Virus record (IMG/VR): IMGVR_UViG_3300037991_000441
Span: 1 to 34,104 of that record
DNA length: 34,104 nucleotides
Direction: 5' to 3' (one strand)
Source: a virus
Taxonomy: Duplodnaviria > Caudoviricetes
Shown in pieces: positions 18,242 to 34,104 of this stretch. Within the stretch, counting starts at the first letter, position 1. Each line of letters begins with the position of its first letter. A program made the position numbers and the translations under genes. The notes under the pieces are model-generated. The model was given only the letters and a program-made list of their open reading frames with translations, searched no databases and was not told where the DNA came from.

Positions 18242-18295
18242 CGCGAAAAAACAAACGCTGGCATACACTTTGTGCCAGCTTATTATTTTTTCGCG
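18242..18295 (+). terminator. Extended hairpin / intrinsic terminator
   Basis: GCTGGCA...TGCCAGC followed by TTATTATTTTTT, enclosed by CGCGAAAAAA/TTTTTTCGCG. Confidence 0.6.
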
Positions 18296-18506
18296 GTTAT
18301 CTGCGTGCTAGTCGCACGTAAATTTACTTGGTTATCTAGTTTGCTACGCAAACGAAATCATACTTGGTCAAGCTGAAGCACGTCACAAACCCTTCAAGGT
18401 GGGGTGGGAATGACGAGAAAGTGGAGTTCAAGTTTGAAACTATGTGGCTGTAACTTACACAAGTTTTTGTAGAGATTCAGTCGCTGAAAATTTATAGGAG
18501 AACACA

Positions 18507-18593: not shown

Positions 18594-18664
18594 ACACATT
18601 AGAAGACATTGTTGGAGTCGTATTTATATTCGCAGGTTTAACTGTATTACTAATGATAACATAG
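18590..18664 (+). CDS. 24-aa single-TM peptide
   Basis: GGAGG SD, ATGA overlap; MNTLEDIVGVVFIFAGLTVLLMIT. Confidence 0.7.
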   Translation: MNTLEDIVGVVFIFAGLTVLLMIT

Positions 18665-18673
18665 GAGAAAGTA

Positions 18674-19013: not shown

Positions 19014-19030
19014 AAACATGGAGAAAGCAA

Positions 19031-20249: not shown

Positions 20250-20277
20250 AAAAATGGGTGGCTCAAAAGGCCACCCA
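20248..20277 (-). terminator. Intrinsic terminator oriented for minus-strand transcripts
   Basis: TGGGTGGC/GCCACCCA stem preceded by A7, which reads as T7 on the minus strand. Confidence 0.6.
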
Positions 20278-20297: not shown

Positions 20298-20687
20298 ATG
20301 ATTACTAAAAACCAGATTAGAATATTATCAGGATTATACTTTTTGATAAAGGAAAAAGAACAACGAATAGTATTATCTCATCACTTACAAAAACAAATGC
20401 CTGATATGAAACAAGGAACATTGTCAACAACCTTGCAAGCTCTCGAGCATAAGCTAGGATTAATAATATCAATGCCTTGTGATGCTGTATTGAGAAGCTT
20501 GTATGCAAATCAAAAAGCACCAAGCACTACAAGAAGATATTACATTACCAAAAGTGGTAACAAATTAGTCAATATGTATTTGCAAATCGTAAAACGAGAT
20601 GGTAATAATGTAGACTATGAAAAGTTATCTTCAGCAGCTTACGCAGTTATCAGAACACCAGAACGTAGACTTACGCAAGGCTTTTAG
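20298..20687 (+). CDS. Winged-helix DNA-binding protein (MarR/PadR-like)
   Basis: GTLSTTLQALEHKLGLI...RRYYITKSG pattern. Confidence 0.65.
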   Translation: MITKNQIRILSGLYFLIKEKEQRIVLSHHLQKQMPDMKQGTLSTTLQALEHKLGLIISMPCDAVLRSLYANQKAPSTTRRYYITKSGNKLVNMYLQIVKRDGNNVDYEKLSSAAYAVIRTPERRLTQGF

Positions 20688-20808
20688 TTGGGCTGGATTA
20701 TCAAAGACAACATACTATAGACAGCTTAAGGGAACGGAGTTAAGATTTGAAACTGCTATCAAAATTGAAAAGGCTATTGAACAACTTGCCACGCTTCAAA
20801 AAAAATAA
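20617..20808 (+). CDS. Cro/XRE-like HTH protein
   Basis: LRKAFSWAGLSKTTYYR...LRFETAIKI. Confidence 0.7.
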   Translation: MKSYLQQLTQLSEHQNVDLRKAFSWAGLSKTTYYRQLKGTELRFETAIKIEKAIEQLATLQKK

Positions 20809-21708: not shown

Positions 21709-22189
21709 TATTGTATCCCTCAATCCAGTAGCTGCAAGACAAAATCTTCTTGCATTTGCATCACCAGTCAGAGCAAACCTCAGGCTGGTGTGGGAACTCG
21801 ATGAACTTGGATTCAAATTCAAAGGACGTATGATTGATAACATATTGGAGATACCAAGACCTACGCTTCAAGAAGCATTGGAGATAGTAGACAAGTACCT
21901 TGTTCCAATGCAACTAGAAGATATCAGGAATCGTCTTGAGAAATGGAAGTATCTTTTTCACAAACCATTTGATTCCAAAATAGAAGAGGTTCAACTAAAA
22001 ACAAATGCGTATGAAGATTTGCTAGCCAAAATGCCAGCAGATTGTACGCACTATGCTTTGAATACTGCGATGCGAAAGTTCAAAATATTCCCAGCATACT
22101 TTGAGTTGTACTCGCTTATAAAAGAGCAGTATGAAATCCGAATGTATTACCAAGAATCTATTGAGAATAAACTTCTAAATAGTAGTTGA
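21683..22189 (+). CDS. Putative replication accessory protein (helicase loader/inhibitor-like helical domain)
   Basis: Y...L..MP......AL........FP...EL pattern; the function is inferred only. Confidence 0.45.
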   Translation: MTKNQPKNNIVSLNPVAARQNLLAFASPVRANLRLVWELDELGFKFKGRMIDNILEIPRPTLQEALEIVDKYLVPMQLEDIRNRLEKWKYLFHKPFDSKIEEVQLKTNAYEDLLAKMPADCTHYALNTAMRKFKIFPAYFELYSLIKEQYEIRMYYQESIENKLLNSS

Positions 22190-22214
22190 CTGGTTGCACA
22201 GTCGGAACTAGAAT
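22186..22214 (+). promoter_or_regulatory. Putative sigma70 promoter TTGACT-N17-TAGAAT
   Basis: Near-consensus hexamers upstream of the exonuclease gene. Confidence 0.65.
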
Positions 22215-22239
22215 GTCCATATAAATAAGGAGAAAGCAC

Positions 22240-23130
22240 ATGGATAGAACTACATTCATTGGCGGTAGTGATGCCGTCAGATTAGTAAATGGTGATTGGG
22301 AAAATCTCTACCTCGAGAAGATTGGAGAGAAGCAACCTGATGACCTATCAGATAATTTACAAGTACAGATTGGTATTGCTACAGAGCAACTCAATGTTGA
22401 GTGGTTTGTCAAACATCACAGCAGTAATCTTAATATGAATATGATTGAGAGAAACAAAAGACTTGGAGTCTATATGATAGACCATGTTCCTTGTGCTGCA
22501 AATCTTGATGGCTTGATTACACAGCATCAAGACAAGAGAGAATGGATTCTTGAATGCAAACACACAAATCCATTTACATCTATCAAAGATGTTATTGAAA
22601 GGTACATGCCACAAGTACAATTCTATATGCACTTGCACAGACACAGAATGAAAATGATTCCAATACGGAATAGATACAACTGCTGTGGTGCATTCATATC
22701 AATCATTCAAAGTAATGGGAGCAAGTATCATCAGTCCCATATTGAGTACGATGAATTGTATGCAGAAAAGATTATGTCCCTGGTCAAAAAGTTTTGGCTC
22801 AACCATGTAGTACCAAAAGTAAAACCTACTAACGATGGGATTGAAGACCCACCAGAGGTCAACTCAATCCCAATCGACAGAAAGGTTCAGCGTTGTATGA
22901 GTTCAAGTAATGAGTTTACCAATGATACACATGATTACATCAAGACAATGGAAGTAGCACACAAACATGAAGAAGCTAAGAAGAGATTGCTTAGTCATGT
23001 TACTGATGATGTCTATGAAATGTTCAATGACTATCTTGTCATATCAGTATCAAAGACTGGTAGACGTACAATCAAACTTAGGAAAGCAATTCAGCTTGCC
23101 TATGATATAATGAGTGGAGAAAAGAAATGA
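22240..23130 (+). CDS. YqaJ/lambda-exonuclease-like recombination nuclease
   Basis: R..FIGGSD, ANLDG, LECK and Y..QVQFYM motifs. Confidence 0.92.
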   Translation: MDRTTFIGGSDAVRLVNGDWENLYLEKIGEKQPDDLSDNLQVQIGIATEQLNVEWFVKHHSSNLNMNMIERNKRLGVYMIDHVPCAANLDGLITQHQDKREWILECKHTNPFTSIKDVIERYMPQVQFYMHLHRHRMKMIPIRNRYNCCGAFISIIQSNGSKYHQSHIEYDELYAEKIMSLVKKFWLNHVVPKVKPTNDGIEDPPEVNSIPIDRKVQRCMSSSNEFTNDTHDYIKTMEVAHKHEEAKKRLLSHVTDDVYEMFNDYLVISVSKTGRRTIKLRKAIQLAYDIMSGEKK

Positions 23131-23570
23131 CAAAAGAAAATATATACACAGCACTTATGAAGTGTGAATTCAAGAAAGTAAAAGTTGAGGGTAACAATGC
23201 AATGTTCAATGCCAAGTACATGAAAGTAAAAGATATTATACCTATGATTGAACTAGAGTTACAAAAGCAAAACATCATTTGCATTGGTACTATGAAAGTG
23301 AATGAACACAATTCACCAATACTCAATATACAGTTGCGACACATACCAAGCGATACATTCATCGAGAGTGAGTGTACTTGCTTAGACGATACTAAGAAAG
23401 GCAGTCAACAAATTGGTAGTGGCATTACCTACATGACACGATACATTTTACAACGGCTGCTTAACTTAGTGCCAGATGAAAGCACAGATGATGATGGCAA
23501 TGAATCTAGCAAGTCTGGTACATTTCAGAAACCAAGAAAAGTAATTAGAAAGGATAACTATGGAATATGA
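23127..23570 (+). CDS. erf: ERF-family single-strand annealing protein
   Basis: Q.IGSGITY.TRY.L...L.L....DDDG signature. Confidence 0.9.
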   Translation: MTKENIYTALMKCEFKKVKVEGNNAMFNAKYMKVKDIIPMIELELQKQNIICIGTMKVNEHNSPILNIQLRHIPSDTFIESECTCLDDTKKGSQQIGSGITYMTRYILQRLLNLVPDESTDDDGNESSKSGTFQKPRKVIRKDNYGI

Positions 23571-23928
23571 TAACACAAATACTGGTGCAGTTTTTCAACC
23601 GAATGGTGAAGAGCTAAGTGGTACTGGAACACTTAATGACAAGGGCAATGAGAATAGAATTGCTGTTGTCAAAGCATCATCAAAAGATGGTTCTACTGTC
23701 AGAGATATATACTTGAAGATTGGTAGAATGTGGGAGAACGATAGCCAAAATGGTATGGCACCACAGTTTACTGGTCAGATTGATTTACCATCTGACAATA
23801 GTCGAGTTGCTGCTTGGGTCAAGCAAGGCTCATACGGTACTATGCTATCTCTTAAGCTATCACCAAAGCTTGAACAAGAACAATCATCTGTTGACAATGA
23901 CCTTGAATCAGATGATATTCCATTTTAG
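23560..23928 (+). CDS. Single-stranded DNA-binding protein (putative)
   Basis: MEYDNTN.G..F start, acidic C-terminal DDIPF tail; follows exonuclease and ERF. Confidence 0.75.
   Translation: MEYDNTNTGAVFQPNGEELSGTGTLNDKGNENRIAVVKASSKDGSTVRDIYLKIGRMWENDSQNGMAPQFTGQIDLPSDNSRVAAWVKQGSYGTMLSLKLSPKLEQEQSSVDNDLESDDIPF
23891..23919 (+). promoter_or_regulatory. Putative internal promoter TTGACA-N17-GATATT for the candidate sRNA
   Basis: Perfect -35 inside the 3' end of the SSB gene; the predicted start falls at the first hairpin. Confidence 0.5.
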
Positions 23929-24003
23929 GACGTGCTTTCTCCAAAGAAGTCCTAAAACATGCTAGGGGGTCTAATACTGCTCTGCTTGCCTGACCTCCTA
24001 GCA
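23923..24003 (+). ncRNA. Candidate anti-Shine-Dalgarno small RNA with two hairpins
   Basis: TTTTAGGAC-[GTGCTTTCTCCAAAGAA]-GTCCTAAAA, then TGCTAGGGGGTC-[20 nt]-GACCTCCTAGCA with a G.U pair on the + strand. Confidence 0.6.
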
Positions 24004-24022
24004 GATAAAGAAAGCACAGAAT

Positions 24023-24235
24023 ATGATTACAAAAATGACACACACAGTTATTCTCATGCTTACCATCGACCTAGAGTCAGCAAGAGAATGCCAACGACTC
24101 AGCGAAAAAGTATACAATGAGAATAGATGCTTTGAAGCATACAATATTTACAGCACCATACCACCTCGCAAGCCAGATAACTTCGAGAACATCATTGGTT
24201 TATATATAGAAAGGAAAAAACTATGGGAGAAATAG
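24023..24235 (+). CDS. Hypothetical protein
   Basis: 70 aa; overlaps the next gene. Confidence 0.6.
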   Translation: MITKMTHTVILMLTIDLESARECQRLSEKVYNENRCFEAYNIYSTIPPRKPDNFENIIGLYIERKKLWEK

Positions 24236-30825: not shown

Positions 30826-33800
30826 TTAATCAAGTCGTTCATCTATTGCTGCTCCTAAGTCCCTAACATGAGATTTAACGTAAGGTAGTGAAAGAAAGGG
30901 TAATATCTTCATCAAATCACTAGCTCCTTTACCAAAATCACCATTTAACATTTCCATAATAGATTTACCCATATCAAATGTATGACTTGGACCAGCTCCC
31001 AGCAAACCAATTAAAGACTCATGTGCAGTATCCTGATACTTTGGACTTATAAATCCACCAGTAAAATTTTCTCCTCGAACAGCTAAAATCGTATGTAATG
31101 ATTCATAGAATAAATCCATATAAATTGCTGCAACTCCAGAGTATTCAAAAGATTGCAACATCTTGTCTTGCATACTCATTTCATCCCAAATGTAATCAGG
31201 TTTTCGCAAACTCAAAGACCAGTAAGCTAATCCTACTCCAATAAGAGGTGCCATAACTCTACTCTTCAAAGCACCTTGAGTAAGTGATGCTGTCACTTTA
31301 TTCACAGCAGCAAAAGAATAAGAAAAGAATTGGAAAGGCATACCAAGTAATGGCACATCAAACTTAACATAACCAGGGTAGTCTACACTTTCTTTAAACA
31401 AACCACCCAATCCAGCTTTATTAACTGTAGAAGTACGCAAAAAAACAAGACCATCAACAAGCTTTGGCTTATCTGCTGGTGTACCCATAAGAATTGTATT
31501 CAAAACACCACTAGCAACACTTGCTCTGAAATCATCTCTAAAAGAAATATCTGTCCACTTGTCTGTATTTGCTAACCAAAGACCACCAGCATCATCTCTT
31601 GATTTCTGTATTGTACCATCATCAACAAGACCTTCTATCTTCTTGGCTTCTTTCTTTCCAATGTTATATCGCAAAAGATACTCAATCTCAAACTGACTTG
31701 CCTTACCATATTTTTTAGGATTAGATACTTTAAGAGCTGAGTTTATATAATGGTCTATTCTTAAAATACCATCTAATCTTTTTAATGCTGTGGTAACAAC
31801 AGTAAGACCATTGAGAATATAGAAAGCATTCTTTGCTTTATCAAACATGTGGTCACTCATAGAATTGAATGACATTTCATTAACAAATCTCTGATGACTT
31901 GTACCTAATGTAAGGTCGATTGCTTCACCACCTTTTGCTACTTCTTTTATTGCTGCTCTTACTTGTGGATTAAAGAATGCTTCAAACAAACCATGCATTG
32001 TTTTACCTACACCATGATTCATCATAATTACAGAAGGCTCTGCCATTGTAGAAAACACAACACTACCTAGATAACTAAGCTGTGCAAAAGTTCGAGAGAG
32101 ATTAACTAATCTTTTATCCCAGCTATAAGGATTATCATGCAGTCTATTTGTAACAACTCTATCATACATAAACCTTACTTGAAGAAAATGACGTTCAGCA
32201 TCTGCAACAGATAAACCCTTTTCAAATGCTTCTTCAAAAATATCATCTTGAATATCATCAATTGTTTTGAATGTTCCAAACTCTCTCTTAAACTCAACCA
32301 TACCAGCAGTTTGCTGGACATACTTTTTGTAAACTGAAAATGGGTCAGTATGTATAAACTTAATTAATCTACTATTTGGTATATCAAGCACCCTACTCTT
32401 TAAATGTTTAGATATACCAGCACCAACAAATATTTCTTCTACTTTATCTTCTTGCTCGAGCAGTATCTTTTGTGTAGTCTGCCTTGCTAACTCATGAGCA
32501 TCATCTCTTGTTAATGTACCTGATGTTCTCTTTCCATCGTCTGTTACCCTATATGTTGTTTTCATCAATTCAGTAGTGAGGAGTTCTTCAAACTCTTCTC
32601 TATTTGCTCGAATCATATCTATGTTGAAGTTTCTTGGAAAAAAGTTTTCATCGAAATAATTTTCACCTGATTGCTGACGATTCTTTATATCGTCTAATCT
32701 TTGCAATACTTCATTGAGTTCATCTGTTTTCTTTTCAATTGTCTTTGTATAACTCTCATCCCAAAGCTTTCTTCTTGCTAAATGAAATTCTTGCTTTGCT
32801 CTGCCATCTTTTGTGTATGGAATTTGTTTTCCATCTTTTTCAAAGAAACCTCTTTTCAAATCAGTTTCCATTTGTTTTATCTTTTCACGATTCTGATTTC
32901 TTTTTTCAATTCGTGAATCTAAATCTTGTCTTAATCTGAATGGTTTACCTCTTTCAAAGTTTGCTCCACCTAATAATCCAACAGCTTCTTTCTCAATCTT
33001 CTCATTCTTAAATGTTTTTATCATAAAATTAATTGCAGCATTTTCCATATCAGTATCGCCAGCTTCACCTCGTATATATCTTACTGTTACGTCGTGAAAA
33101 AATTGTTGCTCTGTTTTTTGCTGACCACCACCCATTAATCTTCTTGGTGTTTGATATAACTTTTGCCATTCAACTTGTTCAAAAGAAAATAAATTTTCAG
33201 CAGAACGTAATGGTGACATGCCAACTGATTGTAAATAAAAACTTCTCATCTTAATTGTAAAATCATAAAGCTTTGCCATGTGCTTTGCTTTATTCTGATG
33301 AACACTATTACCCAGCTTAAATCCACGCTTTATAAGCTCAAGATTTAATCCGCTATCAAAACCAAGCTTCAAGATATAATATTTAGATATTGCTGTTGCT
33401 GTGCTATCAGTCAGTAAATCTTTAATAGGATTAAAAATAAAGCGAAACAAAGGACTGTTAATATAAATATTTTCAGAAAACTTCAATCCTTCATTAAATT
33501 TTTCTAATGCTTTTCTTCTGAATCGTATTGCTTTTGAATTATCATTAGCTCGAATATTCAGTTCTTCTATACGATTACTAATAGCAGTTTGTGCATCTTC
33601 AAGTTGTATAATACGCTTACCAACTTTATCTACTTTTACATACTGTCTTAACTGGTCAACATGAATGCTATCTGATGGATTATATTTTTCGTCTTTATTA
33701 ACACCATACTTCTCTTGTTTTTTAGTAACTGGATTGTATCTACCTTCTTCTTTAATTTTTGTAAGAAACTTTTGAAACTCAGGTGTATTTAACTTTGCTA

Positions 33801-34104
33801 TTTCTTTACCTATCTTTGATGCTTCTTGCTCAAGAATAGGTACTTGTTTATCATAAGCATTCTTATTACTTATTAACTGGTCGCGGTCTGCAAGAGCTTC
33901 AATCTTTTTTGTATCGTATATCTCATCACCAACTTTAAATTGTTTTATTTTTCCTTCAGCTACTTTTTTAGAGTCTTTAAATATTTTACTACTTTGTGTT
34001 TGTTTATTTTCAGCTTGCTGTTGTTTTAGATACTCAATTTCTTTTGTAATCTTAGCTGTATAATCATCAACAGTATCACCAACAGAGTTTGCTAATTGTT
34101 GAAT
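30826..34104 (-). CDS. Largest internal virion protein, C-terminal part (5' end lies at 2654 via circularity)
   Basis: The frame stays open from the window end to the stop at 30826 and matches the frame of 1..2654. Confidence 0.8.
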   Translation of the reverse strand: MQQLANSVGDTVDDYTAKITKEIEYLKQQQAENKQTQSSKIFKDSKKVAEGKIKQFKVGDEIYDTKKIEALADRDQLISNKNAYDKQVPILEQEASKIGKEIAKLNTPEFQKFLTKIKEEGRYNPVTKKQEKYGVNKDEKYNPSDSIHVDQLRQYVKVDKVGKRIIQLEDAQTAISNRIEELNIRANDNSKAIRFRRKALEKFNEGLKFSENIYINSPLFRFIFNPIKDLLTDSTATAISKYYILKLGFDSGLNLELIKRGFKLGNSVHQNKAKHMAKLYDFTIKMRSFYLQSVGMSPLRSAENLFSFEQVEWQKLYQTPRRLMGGGQQKTEQQFFHDVTVRYIRGEAGDTDMENAAINFMIKTFKNEKIEKEAVGLLGGANFERGKPFRLRQDLDSRIEKRNQNREKIKQMETDLKRGFFEKDGKQIPYTKDGRAKQEFHLARRKLWDESYTKTIEKKTDELNEVLQRLDDIKNRQQSGENYFDENFFPRNFNIDMIRANREEFEELLTTELMKTTYRVTDDGKRTSGTLTRDDAHELARQTTQKILLEQEDKVEEIFVGAGISKHLKSRVLDIPNSRLIKFIHTDPFSVYKKYVQQTAGMVEFKREFGTFKTIDDIQDDIFEEAFEKGLSVADAERHFLQVRFMYDRVVTNRLHDNPYSWDKRLVNLSRTFAQLSYLGSVVFSTMAEPSVIMMNHGVGKTMHGLFEAFFNPQVRAAIKEVAKGGEAIDLTLGTSHQRFVNEMSFNSMSDHMFDKAKNAFYILNGLTVVTTALKRLDGILRIDHYINSALKVSNPKKYGKASQFEIEYLLRYNIGKKEAKKIEGLVDDGTIQKSRDDAGGLWLANTDKWTDISFRDDFRASVASGVLNTILMGTPADKPKLVDGLVFLRTSTVNKAGLGGLFKESVDYPGYVKFDVPLLGMPFQFFSYSFAAVNKVTASLTQGALKSRVMAPLIGVGLAYWSLSLRKPDYIWDEMSMQDKMLQSFEYSGVAAIYMDLFYESLHTILAVRGENFTGGFISPKYQDTAHESLIGLLGAGPSHTFDMGKSIMEMLNGDFGKGASDLMKILPFLSLPYVKSHVRDLGAAIDERLD
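32462..34104. repeat. Terminal duplication, copy B
   Basis: Aligns to 1..1643 at about 96% identity. Confidence 0.97.

Follow-up and report, generated by a model that had tools for sequence, protein, structure and literature searches.

A conserved element at the end of the ssb gene of a marine podovirus with complementarity to the ribosome-binding sites of early genes: a probable small RNA repressor

The end of the ssb gene of a small marine phage runs into a structured element, part of which is complementary to the ribosome-binding sites (RBSs) of several of the phage's own early genes. We refer to the complementary stretch as the seed and to the extended RBS as the tag. Because tag and seed change jointly across related phages the element is likely to be a small RNA (sRNA), and the seed and tag together make up a real, conserved and co-evolving system, probably one in which an sRNA represses early translation. 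Our preferred reading, to which comparison of the sequences leads us to assign a probability of about 60%, is that a promoter-driven candidate sRNA of ~80 nt would block the translation of a tagged early regulon in trans. An initial annotation of this DNA had proposed an RNA switch which silences early genes marked by their RBSs; this is borne out in part, by the conserved structured element and the co-varying tag on early genes, and the list of targets is narrower than was claimed.

The phage genome

The window, by which we mean the whole stretch of DNA analysed, is an entire virus record of 34,104 bases that CheckV rates as 100% complete. The source is an uncultured marine phage with a podovirus layout: the terminase, portal, capsid and tail genes are on the minus strand, and the early arm occupies the plus strand, ending in genes for a resolvase, a RecE-like exonuclease (22240), Erf (23127) and SSB (23560-23928). 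Two open-ended minus-strand ORFs (3-2654 and 30826-34104) both match phrog_342 (internal virion protein) and hence probably represent a single gene that the record's ends divide. Neither an integrase nor a match of the icd/ant type was found among the 48 proteins scanned against PHROG, and immunity in a carrier state, one of the two roles suggested in the initial annotation, thus gains no support from an integrase. Of the cultured phages, Pelagibacter phage EXVC031P Hodr comes nearest (54% in the capsid and 30% in the exonuclease); it has neither the tag nor a seed after ssb. Exonucleases of clade 2 are found in MAGs labelled Rhodobacterales (3/6 hits) and also in ones labelled Opitutae, Methanobacteriota and an unnamed proteobacterium; as these labels are mixed, no host is assigned. 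The features surrounding the element are:

22186..22214, plus strand: predicted promoter of the exo-erf-ssb operon, TTGACT-17-TAGAAT, with the palindrome GACTG-N6-CAGTC
22240-23130, plus strand: exonuclease gene, RecE-like (phrog_434)
23560..23928, plus strand: ssb gene (phrog_18154), host of the promoter-like boxes, its own RBS without the tag

Terminator-like hairpins at 18257-18320 and 20255-20277 divide the early arm into several transcription units. The palindrome in the spacer of the operon promoter reads GACTG-N6-CAGTC in the window (22186-22214) and CTGC-N6-GCAG in clade 2, and the clade-2 form also precedes an HTH gene in L171 (L171:7940-7975; L172:7940-7970). It is likely to be the operator for a small HTH-like protein (20617-20808; HTH by reading, no PHROG match).

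Structure of the element

The element spans 23923-24003, beginning at the ssb stop codon, and is preceded by promoter-like boxes which lie entirely within the last 13 codons of ssb (VDNDLESDDIPF):

23891..23896, plus strand: -35-like box TTGACA, in the ssb codons V-D-N
23914..23919, plus strand: -10-like box GATATT, in the ssb codons D-I (GAAATA in clade D), where the protein also constrains the codons
23923..23957, plus strand: hairpin 1, a 9-bp stem that includes the ssb stop codon, with a 17-nt loop and a weak inner stem
23932..23943, plus strand: anti-RBS seed GUGCUUUCUCCA, which co-varies with the exonuclease RBS
23960..24003, plus strand: hairpin 2, 12 bp, with the conserved ATACTGCT in its loop

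The TTGACA-N17-GATATT arrangement reported by the initial annotation is present at 23891-23919. So is the 9-bp stem, with arms at 23923-31 and 23949-57 and the ssb stop TAG (23926-28) in its 5' arm, and GTGCTTTCTCCA (23932-43) is indeed presented by it, but the loop is really 17 nt in length and contains a weak inner stem of 4 bp, so that about UCC(A) alone is predicted to be fully open. The second, 12-bp hairpin is also found as described, its arms being 23960-71 and 23992-24003. In relatives it is terminator-like with a tail of U4-U7, while the window's own copy has no U-tract; in clade E it has been swapped for an unrelated long stem with a U7 tail.

Folding of the element region gave z=-3.4. 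In the minimum-energy fold of a longer region the seed pairs with AGAAAGCAC, which precedes ORF 24023, and the centroid structure keeps both hairpins. Both clades have the recurrent motif ACTG(C/G) (window 23974-23981) in the second half of their elements; it is similar to one half of the clade-2 palindrome, and no target was found for it. Taken as antisense to GCAGTA, the loop-2 sequence ATACTGCT has no consistent target in the close family. No Rfam family matched the window at the gathering level, and the scan of 23800-24100 returned one chance snoRNA match (E 0.12).

Predicted targets

A set of 46 start regions of the window was ranked by predicted pairing energy. The principal targets are:

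22229..22239, plus strand: RBS GGAGAAAGCAC of the RecE-like exonuclease, -20.7 kcal/mol, rank 1/46
19019..19029, plus strand: RBS TGGAGAAAGCA of early ORF 19031, -18.2 kcal/mol, rank 2/46
18664..18673, plus strand: RBS GGAGAAAGTA of early ORF 18674, -15.6 kcal/mol, rank 3/46
24009..24017, plus strand: AGAAAGCAC before the adjacent 70-aa ORF 24023, a target in cis or trans, paired with the seed in the minimum-energy fold

The matches before 22240, 19031, 18674 and 24023 are as originally described, and the ranking proposed as a check places the exonuclease, 19031 and 18674 on top. The same ranking does not favour the two other genes put forward as targets, 20004 and erf, whose pairing is weak and which come 7th and 16th, below the portal gene (4th); ORF 24023 is 6th and ssb 32nd. 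Matches to the 12-mer with at most 3 mismatches number 51 in the window vs 32.5+/-6.0 in shuffled sequences, none of 100 shuffles reaching as high.

The main alternative explanation accepts the pairing as real but assigns the seed to the 3' end of the exo-erf-ssb message, acting either as a processed 3'-UTR sRNA of the OppZ/CarZ kind with feedback on its own operon or by pairing in cis, at long range with the exonuclease RBS and locally with the RBS of ORF 24023. We consider this rather unlikely, though it has several observations on its side. The target with the best match stands at the head of the same operon. Furthermore, pairing of the seed with the RBS of ORF 24023 (G-U allowed) is kept by differing sequences in 11/13 close-family representatives, and the two without it are those with the strongest (U6-7) terminators; this is a hint only.

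Conservation in related phages

A search with the SSB protein led to 63 loci. The sequence GTTGACAA is found at the same distance from the stop codon in 36/36 unique close-family tails collected by protein search (SSB 49-100% identical), and a seed-bearing hairpin follows ssb in the close family wherever the contig extends. Six distant SSBs are without the GTTGACAA tail. The set of loci was widened by a pattern scan (77 loci) and by exonuclease searches. Of the resulting 278 sequences 241 contained an exonuclease; removal of 5 with a cut start and 29 with no ssb end left 207 redundant loci with 83 unique RBS/downstream pairs. An anti-RBS seed is present after ssb in 195/207 of these loci, all of which hold both genes. 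A promoter pattern with a relaxed loop matched 23 loci, none of which has an exo, erf, ssb or lysin homolog, and these were set aside as chance matches.

In an alignment of 19 sequences 96.6% of the stem cells are paired and 5/20 pairs have changed on both sides, while changes on one side are mostly to G-U on the plus strand. Hairpin 1 shows a compensatory change of UA to CG at the wobble position of a Phe codon in 7/19 sequences, together with G-U variants. Since related sequences may beat a shuffle control without any structure, we treat the co-variation of the stems as supportive only. The pair at the Phe wobble position also puts the 5' arm of the stem within the ssb codons, as would be expected of the end of the ssb message.

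A further explanation, foreseen in the initial annotation, is that the seed is nothing but the Shine-Dalgarno sequence of a minus-strand ORF; a variant of it is that the seed is a functionless inverted copy of an RBS generated by recombination. In some clade D genomes GGAGAAAACTATG can in fact be read as a minus-strand Shine-Dalgarno sequence plus ATG. The ATG is absent from L033, L036, L044 and the window and elsewhere the ORFs amount to 8-20 aa, so that there is no conserved minus-strand ORF and this explanation is largely refuted. A functionless copy is difficult to reconcile with a seed that is held at one structured position across exonucleases that are 30-35% identical. Taken together we find these two suggestions scarcely credible.

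Co-variation of seed and tag

The tag takes the form GGAGAAAGC and variants. The tag/seed pair of the window is GGAGAAAGCAC/GTGCTTTCTCC; other lineages have GGAGAAAGCT/AGCTTTCTCC, GGAGAAAACTATG/CATAGTTTTCTCC, GGAGAACA/TGTTCTCC, GGAGAACTAA/TTAGTTCTCC, GAGGAGAAC/GTTCTCCTC and GAGGAAGTAA/TTACTTCCTC, and the exonuclease RBS and the seed have likewise shifted jointly in GGAGAACT/AGTTCTCC and GAGGAAGTA/TACTTCCTC. In 19 hand-picked lineages the mean longest Watson-Crick run between a phage's own seed and its own exonuclease RBS is 8.8 nt vs 6.9 nt when permuted, a difference matched by 0 of 100,000 permutations; for all 34 lineages, 10 seedless ones included, the values are 7.9 vs 6.0 nt. Within clade 1 the run of the own pairs was reached by 769 of 20,000 permutations, and within clade 2 by 1,175 of 100,000. 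Columns 1-6 of the alignment were anchored by the search itself and prove nothing, but complementarity in columns 7 and 8, which were not anchored, extends to 64/65 and 56/65 rows, respectively, and in columns 9-10 to 42 and 37 of 65 rows, the flanks being complementary in 7-25 of 65.

L171 and L181, which represent separate lineages, have switched the tag to GAGGAAG and the seed to CTTCCTC. According to a FastTree phylogeny this switch arose twice, with the seed switching each time. Phylogenetically independent contrasts over five traits were few in number, with ~6 concordant changes, 0 opposite and ~3 unmatched, none of the traits being significant alone. One locus, L022, is discordant in having kept a GCAC tag with an AGC seed. 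The seedless relatives L263, L271 and L268 still have a tag-like exonuclease RBS with no intact seed in their contigs, and no convincing seed was found elsewhere in 11 seedless loci, whose contigs are fragments. The expectation that loop and early-gene RBS would vary together across related phages is upheld.

This co-variation also bears on the possibility that the RNA is mainly aimed at host mRNAs with GGAGAA-type ribosome sites, as in host shut-down, the phage tags being secondary. The invariant core UUCUCC is a generic anti-Shine-Dalgarno sequence, and scores of -11 to -12 kcal/mol are reached by late phage genes that have GGAGAAA. Against this, the bases of the seed outside the core follow those of the phage's own spacer, in agreement with the initial annotation, which regarded the pairing as more than generic; we look upon the host-directed explanation as very improbable.

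A protein site held in common would, of course, co-vary too. The tag could be a protein-binding site in DNA or RNA, its inverted copy serving either as operator of the internal promoter or, within a minus-strand RNA, as a decoy, with no RNA-RNA pairing at all. Two tests did not discriminate: G-U wobbles are not enriched among the target mismatches, making up 114/361 in early (32%) vs 41/158 in late genes (26%), and folding of the plus strand is the more stable in 15/27 cases only. Protein binding was also left open for the start-associated sequences (SAS) of mycobacteriophages, in the part of Pope et al. (PMC3203893) that concerns them. However, the site is short and asymmetric with one inverted copy per genome, its place is either the loop of a hairpin whose stems co-vary or a predicted 5' end, and the promoter-like boxes, the U-tails and the stem G-U pairs are all on the plus strand. 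We therefore consider a protein site to be improbable, and return to the reading of the seed as part of an RNA that pairs with the tags.

Distribution of the tag

For counts of the tag we took 25 loci that are 7 kb or longer, with one for each type of seed and RBS, and used ORF calls that are automatic and noisy. At least 8 Watson-Crick pairs with the seed are found in:

the exonuclease RBS: 18/25
early ORFs upstream: 61/211
ORFs between exo and ssb: 10/33
ORFs after the element: 2/57
the ssb RBS: 0/25
minus-strand (late) ORFs: 1/131

The tag is therefore a property of early genes. Tags upstream of the exo promoter (the 61/211) require an RNA that acts in trans, contrary to what is expected if the seed is merely the end of the operon's message and pairs in cis. 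In seven loci (L213, L220, L223, L230, L231, L251 and L245) a gene inserted before the exonuclease has removed the tagged RBS and the seed is kept; its persistence in the first six of these is again at odds with that explanation. As the seed and the tags of other early genes persist without the exonuclease tag, the exonuclease is not the sole target. The inserted gene overlaps or abuts the exonuclease start.

The start region of ssb is near-invariant, AGGAGCCAGAAGCATG, in 15/25 loci (L186:6997-7015, most clade-2 loci), and possibly represents a separate control site serving, for example, SSB autoregulation.

Promoter, terminator and transcript

The promoter-like pattern taken alone occurs at chance level (38 found vs 30.9+/-5.4 expected), and the promoter claimed by the initial annotation gains its support from the constraint on the ssb codons. 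In clade 1 the Asp codon within TTGACA is GAC in 10/10 lineages vs 27/108 of the other ssb Asp codons, a Val to Ile change leaves the -35 hexamer intact, and the spacing from -35 to -10 is fixed at 17 nt in 10/10 lineages. Four of these ten lineages were first found by a pattern containing TTGACA, and the unbiased count is therefore that of the protein-searched close-family tails (36/36). In clade 2, which was assembled by protein search only, TTG is located 24 or 23 nt before the stop codon in 10/14 lineages with a seed vs 2/10 without; this Leu codon is TTG in 9/9 vs 16/79 elsewhere. Here the first bases of the -10-like box are those of the stop codon, and the seed follows 5-7 nt after the box in 8/9. 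The registers of the two clades differ, and in each the start is predicted to lie directly before the seed unit. By eye, the -35/-10 pair has apparently been rebuilt 3' of the ssb stop in L203 and L171, just before the seed or hairpin. In L203 the sequence CCATTCTAA is duplicated immediately past the ssb stop codon. The -10 box of clade D is missing its final T. These codon comparisons show the -35 box to be kept beyond the needs of the protein, and this constraint, with the fixed spacing to the seed, favours a separate transcription start over processing of the operon message.

A U-tailed hairpin closes the unit in 7/10 clade-1 and 13/14 clade-2 lineages; the window lineage is without one. 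U-tailed hairpins also follow ssb in 5/10 seedless relatives, and the terminators are therefore not specific to the element.

Expression data came from five RNA runs in the form of metatranscriptome contigs only, which represent small parts of the region (word shares of 0.05-0.16), so that gaps in their coverage carry no meaning. A 151-nt RNA-library contig corresponds to 23902-24050 with no differences; it starts within ssb, spans the two hairpins and ends in the gene that follows. A second covers 23946-24101. A discrete transcript is not seen among the contigs, which cannot show ends, and these two fit with read-through RNA or DNA; a contig that spans the element is also what the end of a longer message would give.

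Related systems

Among known systems the closest anatomy is that of the SAS of cluster K mycobacteriophages. In the account of SAS given by Pope et al. (2011, PMC3203893) it is a private, extended RBS tag borne by non-structural genes and conserved further than pairing with 16S rRNA calls for, and one copy alone is inverted and lies apart from gene starts; as far as that account goes, the function was left open and no sRNA was named. As with SAS, the tag described here is at the RBS position, is confined to non-structural genes and has one inverted copy. It differs in being GGAGAAAGC and variants rather than the 13-bp SAS consensus, and in belonging to another host phylum and genome. In mycobacteriophage Anaya (record 28000-60800) we found 16 forward copies of SAS and one inverted, the latter (L278:31871-31883 = record 59870-59882) being intergenic between gp96 and gp97 and predicted to form the tip of a long hairpin, which is a single case in GC-rich DNA.

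P4 CI and P7 C4 are phage-encoded RNAs that silence phage genes by short pairing. According to the part of PMC8198154 relevant here, the C4 antisense RNA of P1, a temperate phage, has the icd-ant immunity operon under its control. C4 and CI had been named as the analogues of the element, and the comparison holds insofar as a phage RNA silences phage genes, but SAS and the OppZ/CarZ RNAs are closer. As far as the cited description allows, the element differs from C4/CI in its exo-erf-ssb context, in the lack of an Rfam, icd/ant or integrase match, and in its many dispersed RBS targets.

OppZ and CarZ of Vibrio cholerae, as described in the relevant portions of Hoyos et al. (2020, PMC7398697), are RNAs from the 3' ends of operons, cut by RNase E, which inhibit the translation of their own message. 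On the strength of those portions the element is like them in that the seed is at the 3' end of an operon whose first gene has the best target RBS, and unlike them in being phage-encoded, in the promoter-like signature within the last gene and in having predicted targets in other transcription units. CjNC1 and CjNC4 of Campylobacter have predicted targets in the 5' UTRs of genes belonging to a single temporal class; the pertinent sections of PMC4626219 report partial, Hfq-independent repression in E. coli reporters and knock-outs without a phenotype. By that report they are chromosomal and flagellar while the present element is phage-encoded, and both are directed at one gene class; the lack of a phenotype in the knock-outs cautions that the effect here may be mild.

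Our literature searches found no published description of the element, and the sections consulted of a 2025 review of phage sRNAs (PMC12197685) contain no such system. In the catalogue of Fremin et al. (PMC10690425), 6 supplementary files were searched for five motifs and contained none of them, files 1, 2 and 4 having been outside the search, and the element may already be catalogued there as an unnamed structured RNA.

Proposed mode of action and significance

We propose that a host-type promoter within the last ssb codons would give rise to a separate RNA of ~80 nt, and that the seed in its hairpin 1 would pair in trans with the extended tag GGAGAAAGC that the exonuclease shares with further early genes. 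Pairing would nucleate at the open UCC(A) tip and then zip through the weak inner stem. In this way the Shine-Dalgarno sequence would be covered and the tagged early genes repressed, repression being the expected outcome because the seed covers the Shine-Dalgarno core. Since a host-type promoter would fire early, the effect would have to come through accumulation: an RNA made constitutively would build up as the genomes are copied, and might act as a delayed brake on the early and recombination proteins. The ssb gene, which is always untagged, would stay on while the exonuclease and other early proteins are damped. In the lineage of the window, which has no U-tail, a read-through RNA may in addition enable the seed to mask the RBS of the following gene in cis.

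Phage antisense RNAs known to date mostly control one operon or host genes. A bolder proposal, for which we would offer somewhat less than even odds, is that lytic phages barcode the RBSs of a temporal class of genes and silence them with one sRNA whose promoter is overprinted on the tail of ssb. This would be an early-gene timer made of RNA only, with lock and key co-evolving, widespread in marine podoviruses and constituting the missing partner of SAS. If this is true, temporal control in small marine phages lacking their own RNA polymerase would gain a new level, with one RNA acting on dispersed, barcoded early genes. For swap experiments, the variants of tag and seed found in nature provide ready-made controls, and the occurrence of the same anatomy in the cultured phage Anaya makes the function of SAS, left open in 2011, directly testable.
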